Part shown: positions 1-11,267 of the stretch, piece by piece
Layout: each line of letters starts with the position of its first letter
Position numbering within the stretch: the stretch's first letter is position 1
From: a virus
Taxonomy: Duplodnaviria; Heunggongvirae; Uroviricota; Caudoviricetes
IMG/VR virus record: IMGVR_UViG_2526164634_000012
Span: 1 to 11,267 of that record
DNA: 11,267 nucleotides
Strand: one strand, 5' to 3'
Position numbers and translations under genes: made by a program
The notes under the pieces: generated by a model
The model's database searches: none
The model's input: the letters and a program-made list of their open reading frames with translations, nothing else
What the model was told of the DNA's origin: nothing

Positions 1-533
1 TGTGGGCGATTGACTGCGGCGATCTTCCGCTGGCGTTGCGTATTGGTGCGTATGTGGTCCGTCATAACCTCATTATGCCGGATAACTTTGGCCGTACTGC
101 TGCCACAGTGCTGACCGAAGAAATCTGCAACCCGGTACTGACGCAGGCCGGGGCGGATGCCGACGCGGATTTGTCCGCCTTTATCGAACCACTGGACACC
201 CTCCGGAAGATTGTCACCGACCAGGACATGCCGGACGAAGTACGCGCCAAATTATGCAAGGCGTGCGCCTTTGCCCGTCGTGGTCTGACCGATGCAGACA
301 ACATGGCCTTATCACTGAAGCTGCTGCGCGAAGCGATGCACCTGAACCCGAACGCAGGTGTGAAACGCGAGATTGCAACCCTTTCCCGCGCCCTGAAAAA
401 AGCCGATTCCGCAGCCGCATCAGAAGACGCCAGCGCACAGCAGGCGCAGGACGAAAGCAGCAAAAGTAAAAAGACAACGCGGAAGCCTGCAACACGAAAA
501 ACCACCGCGACGCAGAAGGCGAAGCGCGGTTAA
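1..533 (+). CDS. M: Terminase small (endonuclease) subunit, P2 gpM-like; 5'-partial, frame open from window edge
   Basis: Frame is open from position 3 with no stop until TGA at 531-533. Lys/Thr/Ala-rich basic C-terminal tail. Sits immediately upstream of an L-like gene as in P2. Confidence 0.75.
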   Translation, partial: WAIDCGDLPLALRIGAYVVRHNLIMPDNFGRTAATVLTEEICNPVLTQAGADADADLSAFIEPLDTLRKIVTDQDMPDEVRAKLCKACAFARRGLTDADNMALSLKLLREAMHLNPNAGVKREIATLSRALKKADSAAASEDASAQQAQDESSKSKKTTRKPATRKTTATQKAKRG

Positions 534-634
534 CGACTGACCCCGTCAGCGGGCGGCGTGCGCGGTGTTCCGGTTTGACTCCGTGGCCGTTTACACCGCG
601 CACCCACCGCCCGATTTTTTCAGGAGTGAATCCC

Positions 635-1129
635 ATGAGCATGGTTGCCAGAACCAACCCCGGCCCCGCAGAGGACGACATCACCGATACCGATGATGGT
701 GATACCCGTATTTCAGCGGGTGCATTCTGGCCGGATATTGTGCTGCGTGAGCTGCGTCTGGCGGTACGACTGCCGGGCCGTGTGACCACCTCCCGTCTGC
801 TGCATACCGCCACCGGGGCTGTGGCACATGTTACCCGCGAGCTGGAAGCATGGCAGCAGGAACAGCAGGCGGCTGGCCATCAGACGCTGGCCGATGTTCC
901 GGCACCCGTAATTAACGGAGAAAGCGTCAATCTCTGGCACTGGCGCAATGCGGTTTACACCGCCACACGCGCCCTGATTCTGGAGCGTTACCGCGATGCG
1001 GACACAACGGACAAGGGCGACCGCCGGGCGGACGCACTGGATATACAGACATCGGATTTGTGGCGTGATGTGAGCTGGGCCATCTCTGACATTCTGTGCC
1101 GTCCGCGAATCTTTGCGGAGTTGTGCTGA
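635..1129 (+). CDS. L: Head completion/stabilisation protein, P2 gpL-like
   Basis: ATG at 635 preceded by AGGAG (622-626); ORF-track ORF 575..1129 trimmed to this start. About 164 aa, close to P2 L. Stop TGA overlaps the ATG of the next gene by 1 nt. Confidence 0.8.
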   Translation: MSMVARTNPGPAEDDITDTDDGDTRISAGAFWPDIVLRELRLAVRLPGRVTTSRLLHTATGAVAHVTRELEAWQQEQQAAGHQTLADVPAPVINGESVNLWHWRNAVYTATRALILERYRDADTTDKGDRRADALDIQTSDLWRDVSWAISDILCRPRIFAELC

Positions 1130-1329
1130 TGAAAGTAAAGGCACTGGAAGGCGACACCGTGGATTCGCTCTGTTTCCGGTACTACGGCACGACGCAGGGC
1201 GTCACCGAAAAGGTGCTGGATGCCAACCCCGGACTCTGTCAGCAGGTATTTCTGGACGCCGGGCAGGAAGTGGAGATGCCGGAGCCGGAGAAGAAGAAAC
1301 GAGAAATGATTCAGTTGTGGGGGGAGTAG
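1129..1329 (+). CDS. X: Tail protein X (LysM-like), P2 gpX-like
   Basis: 66-aa ORF starting MKVKALEGDTVDSLCFRYYG..., matching the P2 X pattern (..GDTLD.ICVRYYG..NPGL). Start is the internal ATG at 1129 of track ORF 1096..1329. Confidence 0.8.
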   Translation: MKVKALEGDTVDSLCFRYYGTTQGVTEKVLDANPGLCQQVFLDAGQEVEMPEPEKKKREMIQLWGE

Positions 1330-1331
1330 CA

Positions 1332-1640
1332 GTGAGCACCATTCAAACAGGGATCACAGAGCAGGTTATTGCGTGGCTCTTTGACCACCTGCCAACGGTG
1401 TATGCAGTAGGCGCGGCGGTCAGCATTTCCGCGCTGATGAGTCTTTATGACGGACGAACACTGGTTCAGACCGTAACGGGATCGCTGGCGTGCGGCGTTC
1501 TTGCCATGGCCGTGGCCGGGTCGTTGCGCTTCTTCGGTTTTCCTGAAGATGCCGTGACGTTTATCGGCGCACTCAATCGGTTTTATGGGGGGCAGAGAAA
1601 GCACGCGACAAGGTTATTGCGGCCTTTAATCGCAGGGTGA
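1332..1640 (+). CDS. Holin (two predicted TM helices); 3' end uncertain, alternative frame ends at 1657
   Basis: GTG at 1332 preceded by GGGGGAG. Hydrophobic stretches TVYAVGAAVSISALMSL and LVQTVTGSLACGVLAMAVAGSL. Position between X and the endolysin matches P2 Y. Confidence 0.6.
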   Translation: MSTIQTGITEQVIAWLFDHLPTVYAVGAAVSISALMSLYDGRTLVQTVTGSLACGVLAMAVAGSLRFFGFPEDAVTFIGALNRFYGGQRKHATRLLRPLIAG

Positions 1641-1653
1641 AGGAGAAGGACGA

Positions 1654-2045
1654 ATGAGCAACACATTTAAATTCAGCAGCCGGAGCGAAAAGAATTTGCA
1701 GGGCGTAAATCCTGATCTGGTGAAAGTGACCCGACGGGCACTGGAAATCTCGGAAGCGGATTTGGTATCACCGAAGGGTTGCGCAGCCGTTACCGCCAGA
1801 AGCAACTGGTGGCCACGGGTAAGAGCCAGACCATGAACAGCCGCCACCTTACGGGGCATGCCGTGGATGTTGTGGCTTATATCGGCAGCCAGGTGTCATG
1901 GGAATGGTCGCTGTACGAAAAAATCGCAGCAGCATTCAGACAGGCCAGCCGGGAACTGAATATTCCGGTGGAATGGGGCGGCGACTGGAAGACCCTGAAA
2001 GACGGACCGCATTTTCAGTTACCACACGGAGCCTATCCGGCATGA
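1654..2045 (+). pseudogene. Endolysin, peptidase M15 (L-alanyl-D-glutamate / VanY-like) family; frame broken by apparent 1-nt deletion in T-run at 1761-1763
   Basis: Track ORFs 1654..1836 and 1779..2045 join into one ~131-aa protein if GATTTGG is read as GATTTTGG, giving ...EADFGITEGLRSRYRQKQLVATGKSQTMNSRHLTGHAVDV... with Zn-binding H-x6-D and downstream GPHFQ histidine. AAGGAG RBS lies upstream of ATG 1654. Confidence 0.7.
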
Positions 2046-2449
2046 AGCTCTGGCCCACGCTGGGTGTCGCTTTCCTTCTGATTGCCGCATGGGGAACATC
2101 CATACGTCTGTCGTGGTCGCTGGGCCGGGAGAACGCCAGAAACGAAGCGCAGGCCAGCACCCTGAAAAGTACCGTCGACACCCTGAATATCATCAGCACC
2201 GGGGTACAGGATATGCAGCAGGTGCTGGCGCAACTCCGCGTGGAAAATCAGCAACGCAATCAGGACGGAGAAGCCATACGTGAACAGCTACGCAACGATA
2301 TTGCAAAAGATGAATGCGCCCACGCTTTGCCTGATGCTCGTTTTACTGACAGGTTGCGCAGGCACGCAGAACGCGCCACGGCCAGCGCCGTCAGTCCGGC
2401 TTATACCGCAGACGCTGACCATACCGGTAACGCCTCCCCCCTTCCCTGA
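2042..2449 (+). CDS. lysB: i-spanin (Rz-like), P2 LysB-like
   Basis: ATG 2042 overlaps the endolysin stop (ATGA). N-terminal TM segment LWPTLGVAFLLIAAWG followed by a coiled-coil-like Q/E/R-rich region. Contains the embedded out-of-frame lipoprotein gene. Confidence 0.7.
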   Translation: MKLWPTLGVAFLLIAAWGTSIRLSWSLGRENARNEAQASTLKSTVDTLNIISTGVQDMQQVLAQLRVENQQRNQDGEAIREQLRNDIAKDECAHALPDARFTDRLRRHAERATASAVSPAYTADADHTGNASPLP

Positions 2450-2600
2450 CACTCCCACATGGGGAAATCTCGGTATATGGGGCGACCGCCTTCTGGATGC
2501 ACTGGAAACCTGTAACGCGGATAAACGGGCCATTGAATTACTGGAACAGCGCAGACTGCAACGACTGAACAACGAGGACAACAACCATGCTGAAAACTGA
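2310..2600 (+). CDS. lysC: o-spanin (Rz1-like outer-membrane lipoprotein), P2 LysC-like, embedded in and extending past lysB
   Basis: Lipobox LLTGC after a hydrophobic stretch; Pro-rich mature region. The 96-aa length from ATG 2310 equals P2 LysC; an alternative GTG start at 2280 has a better RBS (GGAGAAG). Confidence 0.65.
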   Translation: MNAPTLCLMLVLLTGCAGTQNAPRPAPSVRLIPQTLTIPVTPPPFPDTPTWGNLGIWGDRLLDALETCNADKRAIELLEQRRLQRLNNEDNNHAEN

Positions 2601-3054
2601 TTCCCTGCGTGAAGCCATGACCCGTTCATGCCGATGGTGTCAGGCCAACCCGGAAAAATTCACCATTTTCGTGGAGAGCGGCAACATTGAAACGACCGGA
2701 GAAACACCCTCGTTTGTTTACCGCTATCAGATGGTGATGTTTGTCATGGATTACGCCGGGGAGCTGGACGACCTCACGCTGCCGCTGCTGGCGTGGTTAT
2801 CCGAAAATCAGCCACAGTTGTTGCTCAACCCTGAGCGTAATCAGGACATCAAATTTTCCGCCGTTATCAATGACGATGACAGCGCCGATCTCCTGTTTAC
2901 GCTCCCCCTGCGGGAACGCGTTCGCATCACGCGCAGCAGTCAGGGCACACCGCAGGCAGAACACCTGCCGGAGCCAAAACCCCGCCTGCCATCTTCCGAA
3001 GGCGACTGGTCGCATGTATTCCAGGATGTGACGTGGGGTGAAAGCGATGGATAA
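2587..3054 (+). CDS. R: Tail completion protein R, P2 gpR-like
   Basis: 155 aa, the same length as P2 R. Starts MLKTDSLREAM... and contains LLAWLSENQP, matching the recalled P2 R pattern. Confidence 0.8.
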   Translation: MLKTDSLREAMTRSCRWCQANPEKFTIFVESGNIETTGETPSFVYRYQMVMFVMDYAGELDDLTLPLLAWLSENQPQLLLNPERNQDIKFSAVINDDDSADLLFTLPLRERVRITRSSQGTPQAEHLPEPKPRLPSSEGDWSHVFQDVTWGESDG

Positions 3055-3683
3055 GGCATTCACCCGCGTGGATGAAACCTTTGAGGCCATCCGCGACAGC
3101 CTGAATCAGCAGGCCATCAATAACATCGCCAGAAAGCTGGCACAGGATTTACGCCGCGCCCAGCAGGCGCGCATCCGGTCACAGAAAGCGCCGGACGGGA
3201 CCGCATGGACACCACGCAGACGCCGCGTAACCCGGATACAGGAGCGCATTCGCTTTATCTGGAATAACGAAGCACGCACGCTGAAAAACTGGCATCACGA
3301 CACGGGGAAATACGGGCGAACCATTACCGGGTGGGATGAGGATAAAAACAATATCCGCACGTTTTACCGGGATGACATCGACCGTTTTTCTGGAAATACG
3401 CACCCGGCGCATCAACCAGGACAGCACAAAGCGCGTCCCCATGTTCGTAAAACTGCGCACCGCCCGCTACCTGAAAGCCCGTGCAGATGCTTCCGGTGTG
3501 ACGGTGGGTTACAGCGGCGTGGCCGCACGTATTGCACGCGTTCATCAGTTCGGTGAGCGCGATCAGGTTGCGCCGGGCATTTTCACCGATTACCCGGTAC
3601 GTGAGCTGCTGGGTATCAGCCAGGCAGATGAGCGCCTGATTTATAACACGGTGCTGGGCCGGATTGCGGAGGCTGTACGGTGA
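3047..3683 (+). pseudogene. S: Tail completion / virion morphogenesis protein S, P2 gpS-like; frame switches at TTTTT run 3385-3389
   Basis: Track ORF 3038..3556 is protein-like only up to ...FYRDDIDRF, then becomes Arg/His/Pro/Cys-rich. Track ORF 3336..3683 is protein-like only from LEIRTRR onward (...IARVHQFGERD...YPVRELLG...). Removing one T joins them. Start could be GTG 3038 or ATG 3047. Confidence 0.55.
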
Positions 3684-4260
3684 GCGCAGAACTCATGCGA
3701 CTGCTGAGCAACATCATCCGTACCGGGATCATCTCTGAAGTTGATGAGGAATCCTGGTGCGTGCGCGTTCGCAGCGGCGAACTGGAAACAGGCTGGCTGC
3801 GCTGGAACACCACGCGCGCGGGAGCCTTCAATGTGTGGCTGCCGCCATCACCAGGCGAACAGGTGGTAATTGCCTGCATTGGCGGCAACCCGGAAACCGC
3901 CATGATAATTGGCAGCCTGTGGAGTGATGCCAGTCCGGCCCCCGGCAAAAGCCTGAAAGAAATCGTGATCAGCGCGCCGGATGGCGCGGTGTTCCGCTAC
4001 GACACGGACGCAGGCGCACTGAGCGCCAGCGGCATGAAAACAGCCACCCTGCAGGCATCCGTCAGCGTGACACTGGATACGCCCGTCGTGGAATGCACAG
4101 ACCTTCTGAGAACAGCGACGCTTGACGTCACAAAAGGGGGAAGATGAGCGGCAATATCACGCACAGCGGCGGCGATTTCACCTCAAACGGCATCACAGTG
4201 CATACGCATAAGCACGGTGGCGTTAAAGGTGGCAGCGATTCGACAGGAGGCCCGCAGTGA
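3680..4260 (+). pseudogene. V: Baseplate spike/assembly protein V, P2 gpV-like; frame broken near 4136-4143
   Basis: Track ORF 3680..4147 ends ...LDVTKGGR*. A short frame from 4144 encodes MSGNITHSGGDFTSNGITVHTHKHGG..., the His-rich apex motif of gpV. A 1-nt insertion in GGGGGAAG would give ...TKGGKMSGNITHSGG... as one ~193-aa protein. GTG start overlaps the S stop (GTGA). Confidence 0.7.
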
Positions 4261-4607
4261 CAACCCGCTACACAGGAATGAATCCGGACGGGACGGGAAA
4301 CCTGAACGATATGGAGCACCTGAAACAGTCAGTCAGGGACATCCTGATCACCCCGCTGGCAAGCCGGGTTATGCGACGGGAATATGGCAGCCTTGTGCCT
4401 GATTTGATTGACGAACCCATGAATAACACAACTCGTCTGCAATGCATGAGTGCTGCCGTGATTGCGCTGACACGATGGGAACCCCGCATTGCCCTGGACG
4501 CCATCGACGTTGTCTGGAAAGCGGGAGGCCGCGCCGGGGTGACGCTGTCGGGCACTGTCATGCAGACCATGCAGAATGTTGAGTTAACCATCACGCTGAA
4601 GGAGTAA
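4257..4607 (+). CDS. W: Baseplate wedge protein W (gp25/GPW family), P2 gpW-like
   Basis: 116 aa from GTG 4257, overlapping the V stop; position and size match P2 W (115 aa). An alternative ATG start lies at 4278. Confidence 0.75.
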   Translation: MTTRYTGMNPDGTGNLNDMEHLKQSVRDILITPLASRVMRREYGSLVPDLIDEPMNNTTRLQCMSAAVIALTRWEPRIALDAIDVVWKAGGRAGVTLSGTVMQTMQNVELTITLKE

Positions 4608-4610
4608 ATC

Positions 4611-5507
4611 ATGCCCGCCGTTGACCTTTCCCAGTTACCGGAACCCGCCATCATCGCGGAGCCTGACTTTGAGGCAATTCTGGCTGACACAAAGGCCATG
4701 ATGATTGCGGCTTATCCCGCCGAACAGCGTGAAGCCGTCTCCGCCGCGCTGGAGCTGGAATCGGAACCCCTGAACGTTATCGCCCAGACAACAGCGTTTC
4801 GTGAAATGCTGTTACGCCAGCGGGTCAATGAGGGGGCACGCGCCTGCATGTTAAGCCACAGCGCCGGGACAGACCTGGACAACCTCGCGGGCAATATGAA
4901 CACAAAGCGCCTGACCATCACTCCGGCAACGGATACCACCGACGCAGTGATGGAAAGTGACACCTCGCTGAGACTGCGGGCACAGCGGGCGTACGATGGC
5001 CTGAGTGTTGCTGGCCCGTCAGGTGCATACGAGTATTTTGCACGCAGCGCCAGCGGTCTGGTGCGTGATGCGCGGGCCATCAGCCCGTCTCCGGCCTGTG
5101 TGACGGTTTCCATTCTGTCCACTGAAGGCGACGGCACAGCAACGGAGGCGTTGCTTAATACCGTTCGCGCCGTTCTGAATGCAGAGGATACCCGTCCGGT
5201 GGCCGACCGCCTGACCGTACAGAGCGCCAGAATCGTGACATGGCGGCTGAATGCAAAACTGTACTTTTACCCCGGCCCGGAATCCGAACCTATTCTGGCC
5301 GCGGCTGAATCGTCGTTCAGGAAGTGGCTGGCTGAGCAGGGGCTTATCGGTCAGGACGTGGCGTTGTCCGCCATTGCTGCCGCACTGCATGTGCACGGTG
5401 TGCAACGCGTGGAGATAATCGAACCCACACAGAATATGGCCATCAGCGACATACAGGCGGCGCGCTGTGAGTCATTCACCATCAGCGAAGGTGGGCGCAA
5501 TGAGTAA
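4611..5507 (+). CDS. J: Baseplate protein J, P2 gpJ-like
   Basis: 298 aa; begins MPAVDLSQLPEP..., and contains ...RLTITPA...GLSVAG...SPSPACVT...RPVADRVTVQSA..., matching the recalled P2 J pattern. Confidence 0.85.
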   Translation: MPAVDLSQLPEPAIIAEPDFEAILADTKAMMIAAYPAEQREAVSAALELESEPLNVIAQTTAFREMLLRQRVNEGARACMLSHSAGTDLDNLAGNMNTKRLTITPATDTTDAVMESDTSLRLRAQRAYDGLSVAGPSGAYEYFARSASGLVRDARAISPSPACVTVSILSTEGDGTATEALLNTVRAVLNAEDTRPVADRLTVQSARIVTWRLNAKLYFYPGPESEPILAAAESSFRKWLAEQGLIGQDVALSAIAAALHVHGVQRVEIIEPTQNMAISDIQAARCESFTISEGGRNE

Positions 5508-6108
5508 TTCGTTGTTACCACCATCAGCCAGCAATTTCATGCGTTGTGCCGAAGCCGTCGGAACACGCATTACAGACATTCCGGTAGACCTCAACACGCT
5601 GTGGTCGCCGGACACCTGCCCGGTGCATCTGCTGCCTTATCTCGCCTGGGCGTTTTCCGTTGACCGCTGGGATCGCAACTGGCCGGAAGAGACAAAGCGA
5701 CAGGTGATTCGTGATGCATGGCTGATACACCGACACAAAGGGACCATCAGCGCACTGCGAAGAGCCGTGGAGCCTCTCGGTTACCTGATTGAAGTAAAGG
5801 AGTGGTGGCAACTCAACGAGGAGCCGGGAACATTTCGCATTGTTGTCGGAGTACTTGATCAGGGCATCACCGATGAAATGTATCAGGAACTTGAGCGCCT
5901 TATTGCGGATGCAAAACCAGTAAGTCGCCATCTGACGGGGCTGGCGATCAGCCTGAGTGTGAACGGAAAGATTTTCGTTGGTACGGGATGCTATCACGGC
6001 GATGCCCTGACGGTTTATCCCTACACCCCGGAGTCCATTATTGTCGAAGGGGACTATTTCCCTGCCCCGGCCATTCATTTAATTGATAATCTGAGAGTAA
6101 ACGCATGA
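5500..6108 (+). CDS. I: Baseplate/tail protein I, P2 gpI-like
   Basis: ATG 5500 after GGTGGG, overlapping the J stop. Contains WSPDTCPVHLLPYLAWAFSVDRWD and ...RLIADAKP.SRHL..., matching recalled P2 I. Start chosen inside track ORF 5467..6108. Confidence 0.8.
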   Translation: MSNSLLPPSASNFMRCAEAVGTRITDIPVDLNTLWSPDTCPVHLLPYLAWAFSVDRWDRNWPEETKRQVIRDAWLIHRHKGTISALRRAVEPLGYLIEVKEWWQLNEEPGTFRIVVGVLDQGITDEMYQELERLIADAKPVSRHLTGLAISLSVNGKIFVGTGCYHGDALTVYPYTPESIIVEGDYFPAPAIHLIDNLRVNA

Positions 6109-8137
6109 CAGTGAAATACTACGCCATTCTGACTAATCAGGGCGCGGCACGACTGGCTAACGCGACGATGCTCGGCAGTAAGCTGAATCTGACGCAAATG
6201 GCCGTTGGTGATGCAAATGGTGTGTTACCAACACCAGACCCTGCACAAACAAAACTGATTAACCAGAAACGCATTGCACCGCTGAATCTTCTGAGTGTTG
6301 ACCCTAACAATCAGAGCCAGATTATTGCGGAGCAAATCATCCCTGAAAACGAGGGAGGATTCTGGATCCGTGAGATTGGTCTTTATGATGATGAAGGTGT
6401 ACTCATTGCGGTGGCAAACTGCCCGGAAACGTACAAACCGCAGTTGCAGGAAGGCAGTGGTCGTACCCAGACTATCCGCATGATTCTGGTTGTCACGAAC
6501 ACCGAAGCCATCACGCTGAAAATCGACCCGTCTGTGGTTCTGGCAACCCGCAAATATGTGGATGATAAAATCTCAGAGCACGAACAGTCACGACATCACC
6601 CGGACGCCTCGCTGACCGCAAAAGGTTTTACTCAGTTAAGCAGTGCAATTAACAGTGAATCAGAAACACTGGCCGCAACACCGAAAGCAGTTAAGGCTGC
6701 ATATGACCTGGCTGACGGGAAATATACCGCCCAGAACGCCACCACAACACAAAAAGGGATTGTTCAGCTCAGTAGCGCCACGAACAGCACGTCTGAAACG
6801 CTGGCAGCAACACCAAAAGCTGTTAAGGCGGTAATGGATGAAACGAACAAGAAAGCACCATTAAACAGCCCGGCACTGACCGGAACGCCAACAACACCAA
6901 CAGCGCCACAGGGGACTAATAGTACCCAGATCGCAAGCACGGCTTTCGTTATGGCCGCGATTGCCGCACTTGTAGATTCGTCACCTGATGCACTAAACAC
7001 GCTGAGCGAACTGGCTGCGGCGCTGGCAATGACCCGAATTTTGCGACCACCATGACTAACGCGCTTGCGGGTAAGCAACCGAAAGATGCCACCCTGACGG
7101 CGCTGGCCGGGCTTGTTACTGCGGCAGACAGGTTTCCGTATTTTACGGGGAATGACGTTGCCAGTTTGGCAACCCTGACAGAAGTCGGGCGGGATATTCT
7201 TGCGAAATCGACCGTTGCCGCTGTTATCGAATACCTCGGTTTACAGGAAACGGTAAACAAGGCTGGTAACGCCGTTCAGCGTTCCGGCGATAAAATGACC
7301 GGAGAACTGAAAATTGGAACGATGAATGCGCTGCGAATTTTTAATGATGCCTTCGGTCTTATTTTCCGCCGTTCAGAAGAGTCCCTTCATTTCATCCCTA
7401 CGGCTGAAGGACAAGGCGAAAACGGTGATATCGGCCCATTAAGGCCATTCGCTATAAATCTAAGAACAGGTGCTATATATGTCAGCCACGGGGCCAAAAT
7501 TGAAGGAGGTCTAGCTATTGGTGCTACTGATAACGCACTGGGTGAAAACTCCATTGTTCTGGGAGATAACGACACCGGATTTAGGCAAGATGGAGATGGT
7601 ATTATTAGCTTCTATTCAAATGGTTCGCGCATCGGACATATTGATGGGTTAGGATTACATCTTTATAAAGATATTGAATCTAATTGCAGCAATTTTAGAT
7701 TAAAAAGTAATTACCGCCACCACATTACATTCACCAACGAAGACGGAAGTATTCGTATGTTTTTGTGGAAAGATAACGGTGGTGATGGTGTTCATATTAA
7801 TAACGGTTCAGATGGTGGTGGTGATTTCATTTTTAAAACAGATGGGGGATTTGCGCTGGGAAGTGGTGCGCAAGTTGCGTCTAGTGGCGATATTTATGGT
7901 TCAGTGTGGGGAAACAACTGGTTAAGCACATGGCTGCATAATCATGTCGTTCGGGATATTCGTCTTGGCAGCATTGAATATAAAAACGTATGGCGCGACT
8001 ACGGCTTTGGCGATGCGTCAGGTTATGTTTTAACAGCCGCAATTAACGGCAATGCGGATGATCTTGTCGACACTGTTGCCAGAAGGCCAATTCAGAAATT
8101 GATTGGGGGAATATGGTACAACGTGGGGAGTGTTTAA
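6105..8137 (+). pseudogene. H: Tail fibre protein H, P2 gpH-like; frame broken by apparent 1-nt deletion in G-run at 7025-7026
   Basis: Track ORFs 6105..7055 and 7052..8137 are the N and C parts of one gene. Reading CTGGCAAT as CTGGGCAAT restores ...ELAAALGNDPNFATTMTNALAGKQPKDATLTALAGL..., a junction I recall from P2 H. C-terminus ...[17 protein letters not shown] resembles the P2 H end. Confidence 0.8.
6624..6836 (+). repeat. Two copies of the phage tail-fibre repeat motif (QLSSA.NS.SETLAATPKAVKA) within H
   Basis: GFTQLSSAINSESETLAATPKAVKAA at about 6624-6704 and GIVQLSSATNSTSETLAATPKAVKAV at about 6756-6836, repeated at protein level with diverged DNA. Confidence 0.55.
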
Positions 8138-8138
8138 G

Positions 8139-8666
8139 ATGATGCACTTAAAAAATATTACTGCTGGCAACCCTAAAACAAAAGAACAATACCAGCTAAC
8201 TGAAAAAGCGGGCGTGGTATGGCTCTTTTGCGAAGATGGCAAAAACTGGTATGAGGAACAAAAGAATTTTCAGCCAGACACCATAAAAATTGCTTACGAT
8301 GAGAACAACATCATCGTTGCTGTCAGTAAAGACGTTTCAACTATTAATCCTGAAGGGCTAAGCATAGTTGAAGTTCCTGATATTACGGCAAATCGTCGCG
8401 CAGACAATAACGGAAAATGGATGTTTCTGTATGGTAAAGTAGTAAAGAGGGAATATACAGAACAGGAACTGCAACAACAGGCCGAATCACAAAAGGCCGC
8501 GTTGCTTTCTGAAGCAGAAAGCGTTATTCAGCCACTGGAACGCGCTGTCAGGCTGAACATGGCAACAGATGAGGAGCGTAGCCGACTGGAAGCATGGGAG
8601 CGCTACAGTGTTCTGGTCAGCCGTGTGGATACGGCAAATCCTGAATGGCCACAAAAGCCTGAATAA
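8139..8666 (+). CDS. G: Tail fibre assembly chaperone, P2 gpG-like
   Basis: ATG 8139 after GGGGAG, 2 nt after the H stop. 175 aa; N-terminus [21 protein letters not shown] and C-terminus ...[34 protein letters not shown] match recalled P2 G closely. Confidence 0.85.
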
Positions 8667-8671
8667 AAATT

Positions 8672-8700
8672 AAGGCCCGATAGCGGGCCTTGTCTCATTC
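8672..8700 (+). terminator. Putative rho-independent terminator after the V-W-J-I-H-G operon
   Basis: Perfect 8-bp stem AAGGCCCG / CGGGCCTT (8672-8679 and 8684-8691) with a 4-nt loop, followed by a T-rich but interrupted tail TTGTCTCATT. Confidence 0.4.
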
Positions 8701-8725
8701 GTAAGCGCATCATTTAAACCGTCTT
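8701..8725 (+). repeat. Putative left terminal inverted repeat of the IS66-family element (exact length not determinable without the right end)
   Basis: GTAAGCGCATCATTTAAACCGTC... begins 10 bp after the terminator hairpin; the right IR is outside the window so pairing cannot be verified. Confidence 0.4.
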
Positions 8726-8785
8726 TCGCCTCCCTTTCCTGTTTCCGATACTAATGTCCATTTTCGCAGTAAAAGGACATTTAAG

Positions 8786-9436
8786 ATGAATGCACGAAAA
8801 GCGGTACTGGCAGATAATCCAGAATTGATCCTGCGTGTGCTACAGCTGAGATTTGACGAGTCACTGTCGTACCCGCGCATTTCTGCGCAGACTGGTGTCA
8901 GCAAAACCGCCATTTTTTCTCTGGTGAGGCGATTTCACCAGGTATTCACTGACTGGCCTCTTTCCGGTGAATATTCCTGCGGGCAACTGGCCCGGGCTCT
9001 TTTCCCGGGGCGATACCCTTCAGCCCCGACCGTGACTCAGCCTGTGAAAGCAGAGAAACCCCGCCGGAACCGATTTTCACCGGAGTTTAAATGGAGACTG
9101 GTTCAGCAAACTCTTTTACCCGGTGCCTGTGTCGCACAAATAGCTCGAGAGAATGGAATTAACGATAACCTGCTCTTTAACTGGCGGCATCTCTGGCGTA
9201 ACGGTGGCCTGCAACCGCCCGGCGAACATGAAACATCGCTACTTCCCGTGACGTTAACTCCGGAGCCGGATAATAAAATCCCGGCACCAGTGCAGATACC
9301 TGAACAGATAAATACACTGCCAGACAGTCTGTGCTGCGAGCTGGTTCTGCCGGCCGGAACTCTCAGGCTGAAAGGTGAACTGACACCGGCGTTATTACAG
9401 ACACTTATCCGCGAAATGAAAGGGAGCAGCCACTGA
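8786..9436 (+). CDS. tnpA: IS66-family accessory protein TnpA-like, with an N-terminal extension of about 90 aa (HTH-like)
   Basis: C-terminal half ...RRNRFSPEFKWRLVQQTLLPGACVAQIARENGINDNLLFNWR... fits the IS66 TnpA pattern. AAGGA RBS before ATG 8786. Stop overlaps the tnpB start (TGATG). Confidence 0.7.
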   Translation: MNARKAVLADNPELILRVLQLRFDESLSYPRISAQTGVSKTAIFSLVRRFHQVFTDWPLSGEYSCGQLARALFPGRYPSAPTVTQPVKAEKPRRNRFSPEFKWRLVQQTLLPGACVAQIARENGINDNLLFNWRHLWRNGGLQPPGEHETSLLPVTLTPEPDNKIPAPVQIPEQINTLPDSLCCELVLPAGTLRLKGELTPALLQTLIREMKGSSH

Positions 9437-9782
9437 TGATATCTCTCCCTGCCGGTTCGCGTATCTGGCTGGTCGCCGGTATCACCGATATGCGAAATGG
9501 CTTTAACGGCCTGGCCTCAAAAGTTCAGAACGTCCTGAAGGATGACCCGTTCTCCGGGCATCTGTTCATCTTCCGCGGACGCCGGGTGACCAGATAAAAG
9601 TGCTGTGGGCTGACAGTGACGGACTGTGCCTCTTCACCAAACGCCTGGAGCGGGGCCGCTTCGTCTGGCCGGTCACCCGCGATGGAAAGGTTCACCTTAC
9701 TCCGGCTCAGTTGTCCATGCTTCTCGAAGGCATCGACTGGAAGCACCCGAAACGAACGGAACGCGCTGGCATCCGCATATAA
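9436..9782 (+). pseudogene. tnpB: IS66-family TnpB (orf2); frame broken by apparent 1-nt deletion in G-run at 9584-9586
   Basis: MISLPAGSRIWLVAGITDMRNGFNGLASKVQNVLKDDPFSGHLFIFRGRR then stops at 9595-9597. The shifted frame (track ORF 9600..9782) continues ...VLWADSDGLCLFTKRLERGRFVWP...LTPAQLSMLLEGIDWKHP. Reading CGCCGGGTGAC as CGCCGGGGTGAC joins them into a ~116-aa protein. Confidence 0.75.
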
Positions 9783-9801
9783 CCCGTTGTAAAGTGAGGA
9801 T

Positions 9802-11267
9802 ATGGACACCTCACTTGCTCATGAGAATGCCCGCCTGCGGGCACTGTTGCAGACGCAACAGGACACCATCCGCCAGATGGCGAAATACAACCGCCTGCTC
9901 TCACAGCGGGTGGCGGCTTATGCTTCCGAAATCAACCGGCTGAAGGCGCTGGTTGCGAAACTGCAGCGCATGCAGTTCGGTAAAAGCTCAGAAAAACTTC
10001 GCGCTAAAACCGAACGGCAGATACAGGAAGCACAGGAGCGAATCAGCGCACTTCAGGAAGAAATGGCGGAAACGCTGGGTGAGCAATATGACCCGGTACT
10101 GCCATCCGCCCTGCGCCAGTCTTCAGCCCGTAAACCGTTACCGGCCTCACTTCCCCGTGAAACCCGGGTCATCCGGCCGGAAGAGGAATGCTGCCCGGCC
10201 TGTGGTGGTGACCTCAGTCCTCTGGGGTGTGATGTGTCAGAGCAACTGGAGCTTATCAGCAGCGCCTTTAAGGTTATCGAAACACAACGTCCGAAACTGG
10301 CCTGTTGTCGGTGCGACCATATCGTGCAGGCAACAGTACCTTCAAAACCCATTGCACGCAGTTATGCCGGAGCGGGGCTTCTGGCCCATGTTGTTACCGG
10401 GAAATATGCAGACCATCTGCCGTTATACCGCCAGTCAGAAATATACCGTCGCCAGGGCGTGGAGCTGAGCCGCGCCACGCTGGGGCGCTGGACAGGTGCC
10501 GTTGCTGAACTGCTGGAGCCGCTGTATGACGTCCTGCGCCAGTATGTGCTGATGCCCGGTAAAGTCCATGCTGATGATATCCCCGTCCCGGTCCAGGAGC
10601 CGGGCAGCGGTAAAACCCGGACCGCCCGGCTGTGGGTCTACGTCCGTGATGACCGTAACGCCGGTTCGGAAATGCCCCCGGCGGTCTGGTTCGCGTACTC
10701 ACCGGACCGGAAAGGTATCCATCCACAAAATCATCTGGCCGGTTACAGCGGTGTGCTTCAGGCCGATGCTTACGGTGGTTACCGGGTGTTATACGAATCC
10801 GGCAGAATAACGGAAGCCGCGTGTATGGCTCATGCCCGGAGAAAAATCCACGATGTGCATGCAAGAGTGCCCACCGACATCACCACGGAAGCCCTGCAGC
10901 GTATCGGTGAACTGTATGCCATAGAGGCAGAAGTCCGGGGATGTACAGCAGAACAGCGTCTGGCGGCAAGAAAAGCCAGAGCTGCGCCACTGATGCAGTC
11001 ACTGTATGACTGGATACAGACTCAGATGAAAACACTGTCGCGTCACTCGGATACGGCAAAAGCGTTCGCATACCTGCTGAAACAGTGGGATGGCCTGAAC
11101 GTGTACTGCAGTAATGGCTGGGTGGAAATCGACAACAACATCGCAGAGAACGCCTTACGGGGAGTGGCCGTAGGCCGGAAAAACTGGCTGTTCGCGGGTT
11201 CCGACAGCGGTGGCGAACATGCGGCGGTGTTGTACTCGCTGATCGGCACATGCCGTCTGAACAATGT
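9802..11267 (+). CDS. tnpC: IS66-family transposase TnpC (DDE), 3'-partial, open to window end
   Basis: My own translation from ATG 9802 shows no stop to the window end; this ORF is absent from the supplied track, presumably because it has no stop. N-terminal leucine-rich coiled coil, Cys pairs CPACGG...CCRC, and motifs ...[12 protein letters not shown]..., ...HADD.PVPV..., ...LQADAY.GY..., ...[25 protein letters not shown]... typical of IS66 transposases. Confidence 0.85.

Follow-up and report, generated by a model that had tools for sequence, protein, structure and literature searches.

IS679 at the midpoint of a putative invertible tail-fibre segment in a P88-like prophage

The G segment of phage Mu and the C segments of P1 and P7 are organised as two convergent sets, each composed of a variable fibre end and a chaperone gene, together with gix/cix-like inverted repeats and an adjacent serine invertase. 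The same kind of invertible fibre segment is shared by P88 (Xuanwuvirus P88, KP063541) and by the prophages of strains FDAARGOS_1059 and E300082, where the tail-fibre chaperone gene is succeeded by another chaperone gene in convergent orientation (U'), then by an alternative fibre C-terminus and a Gin-like invertase; beyond the invertase lies the 3' end of the FI-U operon, encoded on the opposite strand. P88 is an isolated, plaque-forming phage and has this same gene order (PMC5285337). In phage P2 the order is instead G - terminator - fun(Z) - pF - FI, and the spot immediately 3' of the fibre chaperone gene varies among P2-family phages. The second known component of the locus described here is IS679, a member of the IS66 family which is said to have been first described, by Han and colleagues in 2001, on the EPEC plasmid pB171. 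Annotated copies of this element start with GTAAGCG and carry tnpA, tnpB and tnpC in that order, with a TGATG overlap between the first two genes and the transposase domains of the family.

The window analysed in this study, i.e. the whole stretch of 11,267 nucleotides, is a complete draft contig (AIHD01000041.1, 11267 bp; assembly GCA_000250275.2) which ends inside the insertion sequence, 137 bp before the end of the element. The contig breaks off at this point because IS679 is a multicopy repeat, and, since the window is the entire contig, the right inverted repeat and the predicted duplication would lie beyond the sequence read. Judged by its sequence, the prophage is P88-like (Xuanwuvirus, Peduoviridae) rather than P2 proper. 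Its late genes M to I have the same order as in P88, FDAARGOS_1059 and E300082, at identities ranging from 96.5% for P88 (over 5.9 kb) to 99.6%, and the closest IS-free prophages are those of FDAARGOS_1059 (99.6%) and E300082 (98.3%). The chaperone gene is identical in this group; unlike in the window, however, the two chaperone genes of P88 and of the two prophages are not separated by an IS. A scan of the window against Rfam returned no match. The features of the locus are collected in Table 1.

Table 1. Features of the tail-fibre locus and of the IS679 copy (positions in the window)
Feature	Position	Strand	Evidence
Tail-fibre gene H, constant N-terminal and variable C-terminal part	6105..8137	+	Pfam Phage_tail_fib, Phage_fiber_2, gp37_trimer
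Left crossover site (gix/cix-like), TTATCGAATACCTCGGTTTACAGGAA	7224..7249	.	Inverted repeat with L014 22146-22201
Tail-fibre assembly chaperone (G / U equivalent)	8139..8666	+	Pfam Caudo_TAP E=2e-35
G+C-rich hairpin common to the two convergent chaperone genes	8671..8692	.	Fold energy, terminator scan
Predicted 8-bp target site, TCTCATTC	8693..8700	.	Empty site of IS-free relatives; 8-bp duplications of other IS679 copies
IS679 (IS66 family), first 2567 of 2704 bp, cut by contig end	8701..11267	+	99.92% to L003 copy; RefSeq annotation
Left terminal inverted repeat, starts GTAAGCG (8701-8707)	8701..8725	+	Complete reference copy; boundary constant across contexts
tnpA, accessory HTH protein, 216 aa	8786..9436	+	NF038385 IS66_access_TnpA E=6e-85; PF01527
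tnpB (IS66 Orf2), split as read into 53-aa and 60-aa pieces	9436..9782	+	PF05717, NF033819
tnpC, DDE transposase, first 488 of 523 codons, contig end inside	9802..11267	+	PF13007, PF13005, PF03050 (E=1e-103), NF033517 (E=4e-137)

Over all of its 2567 bp the element matches a complete 2704-bp copy of IS679 (L003) at 99.92% identity, the differences being one synonymous substitution at 9474 and a 1-bp deletion at ~9583, whereas identity to other IS66-family relatives is 94-96%. Moreover, megablast returned 2232 E. coli records with at least 80% query coverage, annotated as 'IS66-like element IS679 family'. At the level of sequence, then, the element is the same IS as the named IS679 and not merely a relative of it. 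As in the annotated copies, the genes follow the order tnpA, tnpB, tnpC and the tnpA stop overlaps the tnpB start in a TGATG at 9434-9438. The two tnpB pieces match positions 2-45 and 49-100 of the PF05717 profile and, between them, both halves of NF033819; the split is caused by GGGG -> GGG, the sole indel with respect to the intact L003 copy. The tnpC product is of the IS66 type, with zf-IS66 and LZ_Tnp_IS66 in addition to PF03050, and scores 457 bits against NF033517 (cut-off 180); intact tnpC copies measure 1572 bp. Compared with the known IS679, the copy in the window thus differs in the tnpB split as read and in its last 137 bp, which lie beyond the contig.

Native phage DNA continues after the chaperone gene over positions 8667-8700, comprising the hairpin and TCTCATTC, and the first base of the IS is 8701. 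Where the window has GTAAGCG, the IS-free relatives read ...GTCTCATTC directly followed by TGGTTGTTCTGG, and hence GTAAGCG is not native phage sequence; similarity among IS679 copies in unrelated contexts also begins at GTAAGCG. When the right end of the complete reference copy is reverse-complemented, it starts with the same heptamer as the left end, and the two agree at ~17 of their first 25 bases. The three other IS679 copies checked are 2704-bp simple insertions, each flanked by an 8-bp duplication. An earlier note on this DNA had placed an IS66-family element here, with GTAAGCG as its terminus and TCTCATTC as its left flank; all of this is borne out, the flank lying directly 5' of 8701. 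Two sets of candidates for a shared insertion or flank were rejected. Seven IS66-family copies matching the 53-aa TnpB piece proved to be relatives at 94-96% identity in unrelated contexts, and one IS679 copy (H1), which matched from 14 bp upstream of the IS, has a flank (TTGCCTGTTCGTCC) of unrelated context and its own duplication, GTTCGTCC.

On the phage side, the late operon closes with the chaperone gene in the orientation of the window, and the counterpart of this gene is that for WP_000972132.1 in E24377A, FDAARGOS_1059 and E300082 (0 differences from E300082). The hairpin which follows ends 8 bp before the IS and folds at -15.5 kcal/mol on the plus strand (z -4.3) and at -20.2 on the minus strand, no shuffled sequence folding as well; the position of the IS just after the fibre chaperone gene and a genuine hairpin, also proposed earlier, is upheld. 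The terminator scan calls the hairpin on the minus strand only, with the tail AATTTTTATT, the T-run being on the minus-strand side. On the minus strand, positions 8695-8700 correspond to the final Glu codon and the stop with which the convergent U' gene ends in the IS-free relatives, and these two codons are all that the window keeps of U'. The empty site of one such relative (L014) reads GGGCCTTGTCTCATTC followed by TGGTTG, and its U' coding sequence ends at L014 20695, equivalent to window 8695.

The match to FDAARGOS_1059 changes strand within the fibre gene: positions 1-7264 of the window align to its minus strand (99.56% identity) and positions 7224-8700 to its plus strand (99.87%), which places the switch point at 7224-7264. 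The partner repeat of the left crossover site in L014 adjoins the invertase gene. Both orientations of the segment therefore occur among near-identical prophages, the window having that of E300082, opposite to that of FDAARGOS_1059. The first set of variable fibre end and chaperone gene lies in the window (7250-8666), and the second is present in all close relatives, the three nearest of which differ in their U' protein. The invertase of the relatives, beyond the contig here, matches Resolvase and HTH_7 and, at E=1e-100, two structures of Mu Gin (4m6f and 3uj3). The region from U through the hairpin to U' has ~80% nucleotide identity to Mu-like phages (D108, SfMu) and to P1/P7, and the homology of the U-U' regions of Mu, D108, P1, P7 and SfMu likewise ends at window 8700. 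Unlike the Mu and P1/P7 segments, the switch here forms part of the tail module of a P2-family (Peduoviridae) phage and is read with a 2.7-kb IS at its centre; its left half lies inside the window and the rest is known from the relatives. Taken as a whole, the comparisons make it almost certain that the element is IS679 and that the site of its insertion belongs to an invertible-segment locus.

Several genes appear split in the window, including H, which is read as 6105-7055 and 7052-8137 owing to a missing G at ~7024 (GGG -> GG, its only indel). The counterpart of H in E300082 is a single 2034-bp gene, and the corrected H is intact with 1 aa difference. Along the window, seven single-base indels, the tnpB frameshift among them, were located at 1572, 1587, 1760, 3385, 4140, 7024 and 9583, most of them within short runs of one base. 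Once these were corrected, 13 of the 13 phage genes were intact, with 116 nucleotide differences resulting in only 30 amino acid differences and no nonsense codon. The seven indels, the apparent tnpB frameshift included, are probably read errors, and the pseudogene status of the genes split as read here (holin, endolysin, S, V, H and tnpB) is doubtful without a check of the reads. The deletion in the G-run of tnpB recurs in seven further IS66-family copies, which come from several data sources, and that frameshift could be real.

The arrangement suggests that IS679 transposed into a P88-like prophage at the midpoint of a Gin-type (Mu-G / P1-C type) invertible tail-fibre segment, the target being the 8 bp that separate the body of U' from the shared hairpin. 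To the right of the element, one would expect an 8-bp duplication of TCTCATTC and then U', the alternative fibre end and the invertase, and a simple right junction would read ...GGCGAGCCGCTTAC-TCTCATTC-TGGTTGTTCTGG...; the presence of GGCGAGCCGCTTACTCTCATTCTGGTTGTTCTGG in the source genome would indicate a simple insertion with an 8-bp duplication and an intact U'. With such a duplication no reading frame would be broken, because the last codon and the stop of U' would be restored, and the insertion probably breaks no gene. The fibre and chaperone pair now expressed would be untouched, as would the FI-U tail operon, which is convergent and has its own promoter in the relatives. U' would be parted by the IS from the hairpin bearing its T-tail, and the segment would have grown from ~3.0 to ~5.7 kb, with inversion still expected and the IS carried along. 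A phage genome lengthened by the 2.7-kb IS would measure ~38.5 kb, against 35.8 kb in P88. We consider this reading, i.e. IS679 in the middle of a P88-like Gin-type segment with a simple right junction beyond the contig, to be likely.

A different reading had been offered by the earlier note, in which the IS occupies the cargo slot at the G/FI junction, the site of the Z/fun moron of P2, where it may have displaced or disrupted cargo and could exert a polar block on the tail operon downstream, or separate that operon from the rest. P2 does have fun(Z) and pF between the terminator and FI, and the IS does come after the chaperone gene and the hairpin. However, the window shares only 257 nt of similarity with that part of P2, and the comparison with IS-free related prophages which the note had proposed, now carried out, revealed in every close relative and in P88 a locus occupied by U', the fibre end and the invertase, with FI-U reversed, and not Z/fun followed by FI; there is no fun(Z) homologue. 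As the native sequence of the empty site continues directly into U', displaced cargo would have had nowhere to lie. A polar block likewise loses its basis, since the FI operon of the relatives is no downstream part of this transcription unit: it is encoded on the other strand, and its 3' end faces the locus. The P2 template is thus very improbable for this site.

The preferred reading of a simple insertion into the invertible segment has also to be set against two explanations which concern the join itself. Searches for the left junction in 5426 complete E. coli genomes, GenBank phages, GTDB representatives, JGI metagenomes, IMG/VR and PLSDB plasmids gave no match, nor did those for the predicted right junction in the complete E. 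coli genomes (5426) and GTDB representatives. The absence of the junction from every other genome searched, the many single-base indels of the draft assembly and the position of the contig end inside a multicopy repeat would all fit a chimeric join of a phage contig with a collapsed IS repeat, no IS being present at the site in the real genome. Such an artefact is nevertheless hardly credible, given that the join coincides to the base with the start of the IS terminus (GTAAGCG), as a true insertion produces, and that phage and IS have no common sequence there to mislead an assembler. The IS could alternatively mark a rearrangement breakpoint, produced by recombination of this IS679 copy with another, which could have linked it to other DNA, or by an IS-mediated adjacent deletion or inversion, with U', the fibre end and the invertase removed or relocated. 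Closely related strains carry many copies (IS679 occupies 17 places in FDAARGOS_1059, 16 in O111:H2 12A and up to 31 per genome), and the right side is unconstrained, with the contig stopping inside the IS. Against a breakpoint, the phage part otherwise keeps the order of intact relatives as far as the junction itself, and each of the three IS679 copies checked is a simple insertion whose duplication is intact. We regard a breakpoint as unlikely; if it were true, the tail fibre would be locked in one form, or the prophage split.

The element is already known, and its insertion site is new but unremarkable. Beyond annotation the significance of the finding is small, the insertion being private to one draft genome; the correction that it brings is that the prophage is P88-like with a Mu-G-type switch, so that the P2 Z/fun template misfits the region after the chaperone gene. 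More tentatively, and rather doubtfully, the simple insertion may have left IS679 as a passenger in a still-functional segment, whose flips would reverse the orientation of the element with respect to the other chromosomal copies. As the hairpin has no T-run on the plus strand, read-through from the late operon could also express tnpA-tnpC upon induction of the prophage. Should the IS indeed be such a passenger, its orientation would decide between deletion and inversion upon recombination between IS679 copies.

An exact protein match shows that the 11,267-bp stretch is contig AIHD01000041.1 of draft assembly GCA_000250275.2 in its entirety. It starts within the gene for the terminase small subunit of a P2-family prophage, proceeds through lysis, tail-completion and baseplate genes to a tail fibre with its chaperone, and stops within an insertion sequence; both ends are probably assembly breaks induced by repeats. 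The IS66-family element reported here in the earlier note is confirmed by alignment to IS679 and by Pfam and NCBIfam matches, with the IS proper beginning at 8701 and the left flank, TCTCATTC, being as first read. Positions 8701-11267 align colinearly, without rearrangement, with the complete 2704-bp element of plasmid NZ_CP066034 (L003), which is annotated as IS679 and flanked by an 8-bp duplication, CCAGGGAG. Only two differences separate these copies, namely a synonymous C/T at 9474 and one G missing from GGGG at about 9583. Two further IS679 copies (L004 and L005) also measure 2704 bp, each with its own 8-bp duplication, and GTAAGCG is where similarity starts among copies in unrelated contexts. 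Judged by its alignment, the element is IS679 itself, already known; 2232 E. coli records each cover at least 80% of the query (megablast).

Coordinates of the IS679 genes in the window and of the tail operon in P88 and P88-like loci
Feature	Position	Strand or orientation	Basis
tnpA	8786-9436	+	Pfam, NCBIfam
tnpB, in two pieces	9436-9782	+	Pfam, NCBIfam
DDE transposase, 488 of 523 codons present	from 9802	+	Pfam, NCBIfam
FI-FII-E-E'-T-U tail operon, L014 (E300082)	22875-28456	opposite to H	
FI-FII-E-E'-T-U tail operon, L002	1960-7551	opposite to H	
FI-FII-E-E'-T-U tail operon, L015	11774-17349	opposite to H	

In IS-free sequences, the phage-side similarity ends at window 8700 in every case, and the chaperone gene is directly followed by a second, convergent one. 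The closest prophage, in E. coli FDAARGOS_1059, matches window 1-7264 at 99.56% on one strand and 7224-8700 at 99.87% on the other, while E300082 is a colinear relative with 98.3% identity across 1-8700 in a single piece. Both share with P88, an isolated phage which forms plaques (PMC5285337), the fibre gene H and chaperone gene U, a convergent chaperone gene U' with an alternative fibre C-terminus, and a serine recombinase, beyond which U, T, E', E, FII and FI lie on the opposite strand, followed by D and ogr. The recombinase resembles the Mu Gin structures 4m6f and 3uj3 (E=1e-100). In the relatives, inverted repeats, TTATCGAATACCTCGGTTTACAGGAA and its partner, form the edges of the invertible segment; the left one is also present in the window (7224-7249), coinciding with the point where the FDAARGOS_1059 alignment changes strand. 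Furthermore, the stretch from U through the hairpin to U' finds matches of about 80% in Mu-like phages (D108, SfMu) and in P1/P7. Since gene order, recombinase, repeats, strand switch and Mu/P1 matches agree, comparative sequence evidence identifies the IS site as the centre of an invertible tail-fibre segment of the Mu-G/P1-C type in a P88-like (Xuanwuvirus) prophage.

The earlier note had assigned the site to the G/FI junction, where P2 carries Z/fun. It is right about P2, whose order is G, terminator, fun(Z), pF and FI, but this layout does not apply here, as the relatives and P88 have U', the alternative fibre end and the recombinase. P88 is 96.5% identical to the window over 5.9 kb, whereas only 257 nt are common to the window and the corresponding part of P2. 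The suggested polar block on the sheath operon likewise finds no basis in the relatives, whose FI-U operon is convergent; in the present orientation the chaperone gene is the last of its operon, with nothing downstream. In P88 and P88-like prophages the tail operon abuts the invertase gene with its 3' end; in P2, unlike these, it is co-oriented with H. In the two P88-like prophages the D-like gene is annotated at a mere 266 aa.

The variable fibre end, chaperone and hairpin (7217-8700) are 99.7-100% identical to 8217-9701 of L001, a prophage of a different kind. This remnant in ssuA of E. coli E24377A carries a transposase-domain gene and a Com regulator, and outside the fibre cassette it is unrelated to the window. 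Substitutions between the window and E300082 fall from about 2% to nearly zero past window ~6500. This cassette seems to be exchanged between phage families.

The empty site of E300082 reads GGGCCTTGTCTCATTC up to the junction and TGGTTGTTCTGG beyond it. Because the U' coding sequence of the relative ends at the equivalent of window 8695, positions 8695-8697 (TCA) and 8698-8700 (TTC), read on the minus strand, are the U' stop codon and last codon; the IS entered between this last codon and the remainder of U'. The hairpin noted earlier ahead of the IS (8671-8692) is real by its fold energy of -15.5 kcal/mol, which no shuffled sequence equalled. Terminator scoring recognises it as an intrinsic terminator on the minus strand only, where AATTTTTATT follows and the T-run lies, so the IS would separate U' from the hairpin bearing its T-tail. 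On the plus strand the hairpin is followed by GTCTCATTC, and the H-U late transcript may therefore be poorly terminated and read into the IS.

The left junction was found in none of 5426 complete E. coli genomes, PLSDB plasmids, GenBank phages, GTDB representatives, JGI metagenomes or IMG/VR, nor the predicted right junction in complete E. coli genomes or GTDB representatives. An assembly chimera joining phage and IS is unlikely, as the join coincides precisely with the first base of the IS terminus, where the two share no sequence. The main rival to a simple insertion is a later recombination of this IS with a second copy, which would place something other than U' on the right side. IS679 occupies up to 17 places in related strains and up to 31 in some genomes, so that such an exchange could have happened; we regard it as improbable, though well worth keeping in mind. 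The insertion site is the sole new fact, and unsurprising to a specialist; the phage belongs to a known genus, and invertible fibre switches of this kind are classical.

Compared with E300082, the phage part shows six single-base indels (1572, 1587, 1760, 3385, 4140 and 7024), all but one within short same-base runs; with the tnpB indel at ~9583, seven separate the window from close relatives, mostly in base runs. As read, holin, M15 endolysin, S, V, H and tnpB are split or truncated. Correcting the indels leaves all 13 phage genes intact, with 116 nucleotide but only 30 amino acid differences from E300082 and no nonsense codons. Purifying selection is evident in the mostly synonymous substitutions, while frameshifts are the only disruptions and lie for the most part in base runs; read errors in such runs give this picture, and the indels probably reflect them rather than pseudogenes. 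The loss of a G in tnpB (GGGG to GGG) follows the same pattern. Seven other IS66-family copies (L006, L007, L008, L009, L011, L012 and L013) from NCBI, ENA and Logan assemblies carry the identical deletion; they are 94-96% identical to the window copy and lie in unrelated contexts. All yield an identical 53-aa product, some alongside an intact 523-aa transposase. The deletion thus recurs in some way, either by repeated slippage at the G-run or through a spreading defective lineage, and the frameshift could be real. Han et al. 2001 reportedly found that transposition of IS679 requires all three of its genes; if the frameshift is real, this copy would depend on others.

On the simple-insertion reading, which is the most likely one, IS679 would have entered an intergenic-like 8-bp target by ordinary DDE transposition, disrupting no reading frame. 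If it made its usual 8-bp duplication (TCTCATTC, 8693-8700), the right copy would restore the last codon and stop of U', leaving the gene intact. The invertible segment would be enlarged from about 3.0 to about 5.7 kb. Gin, Hin and Cin systems employ invertase dimers at two crossover sites, together with an enhancer that is bound by Fis and lies close to the invertase gene; a summary of the Gin scheme is given in PMC3575834. Inversion should still occur at the larger spacing, and the IS would thus be flipped together with the segment.
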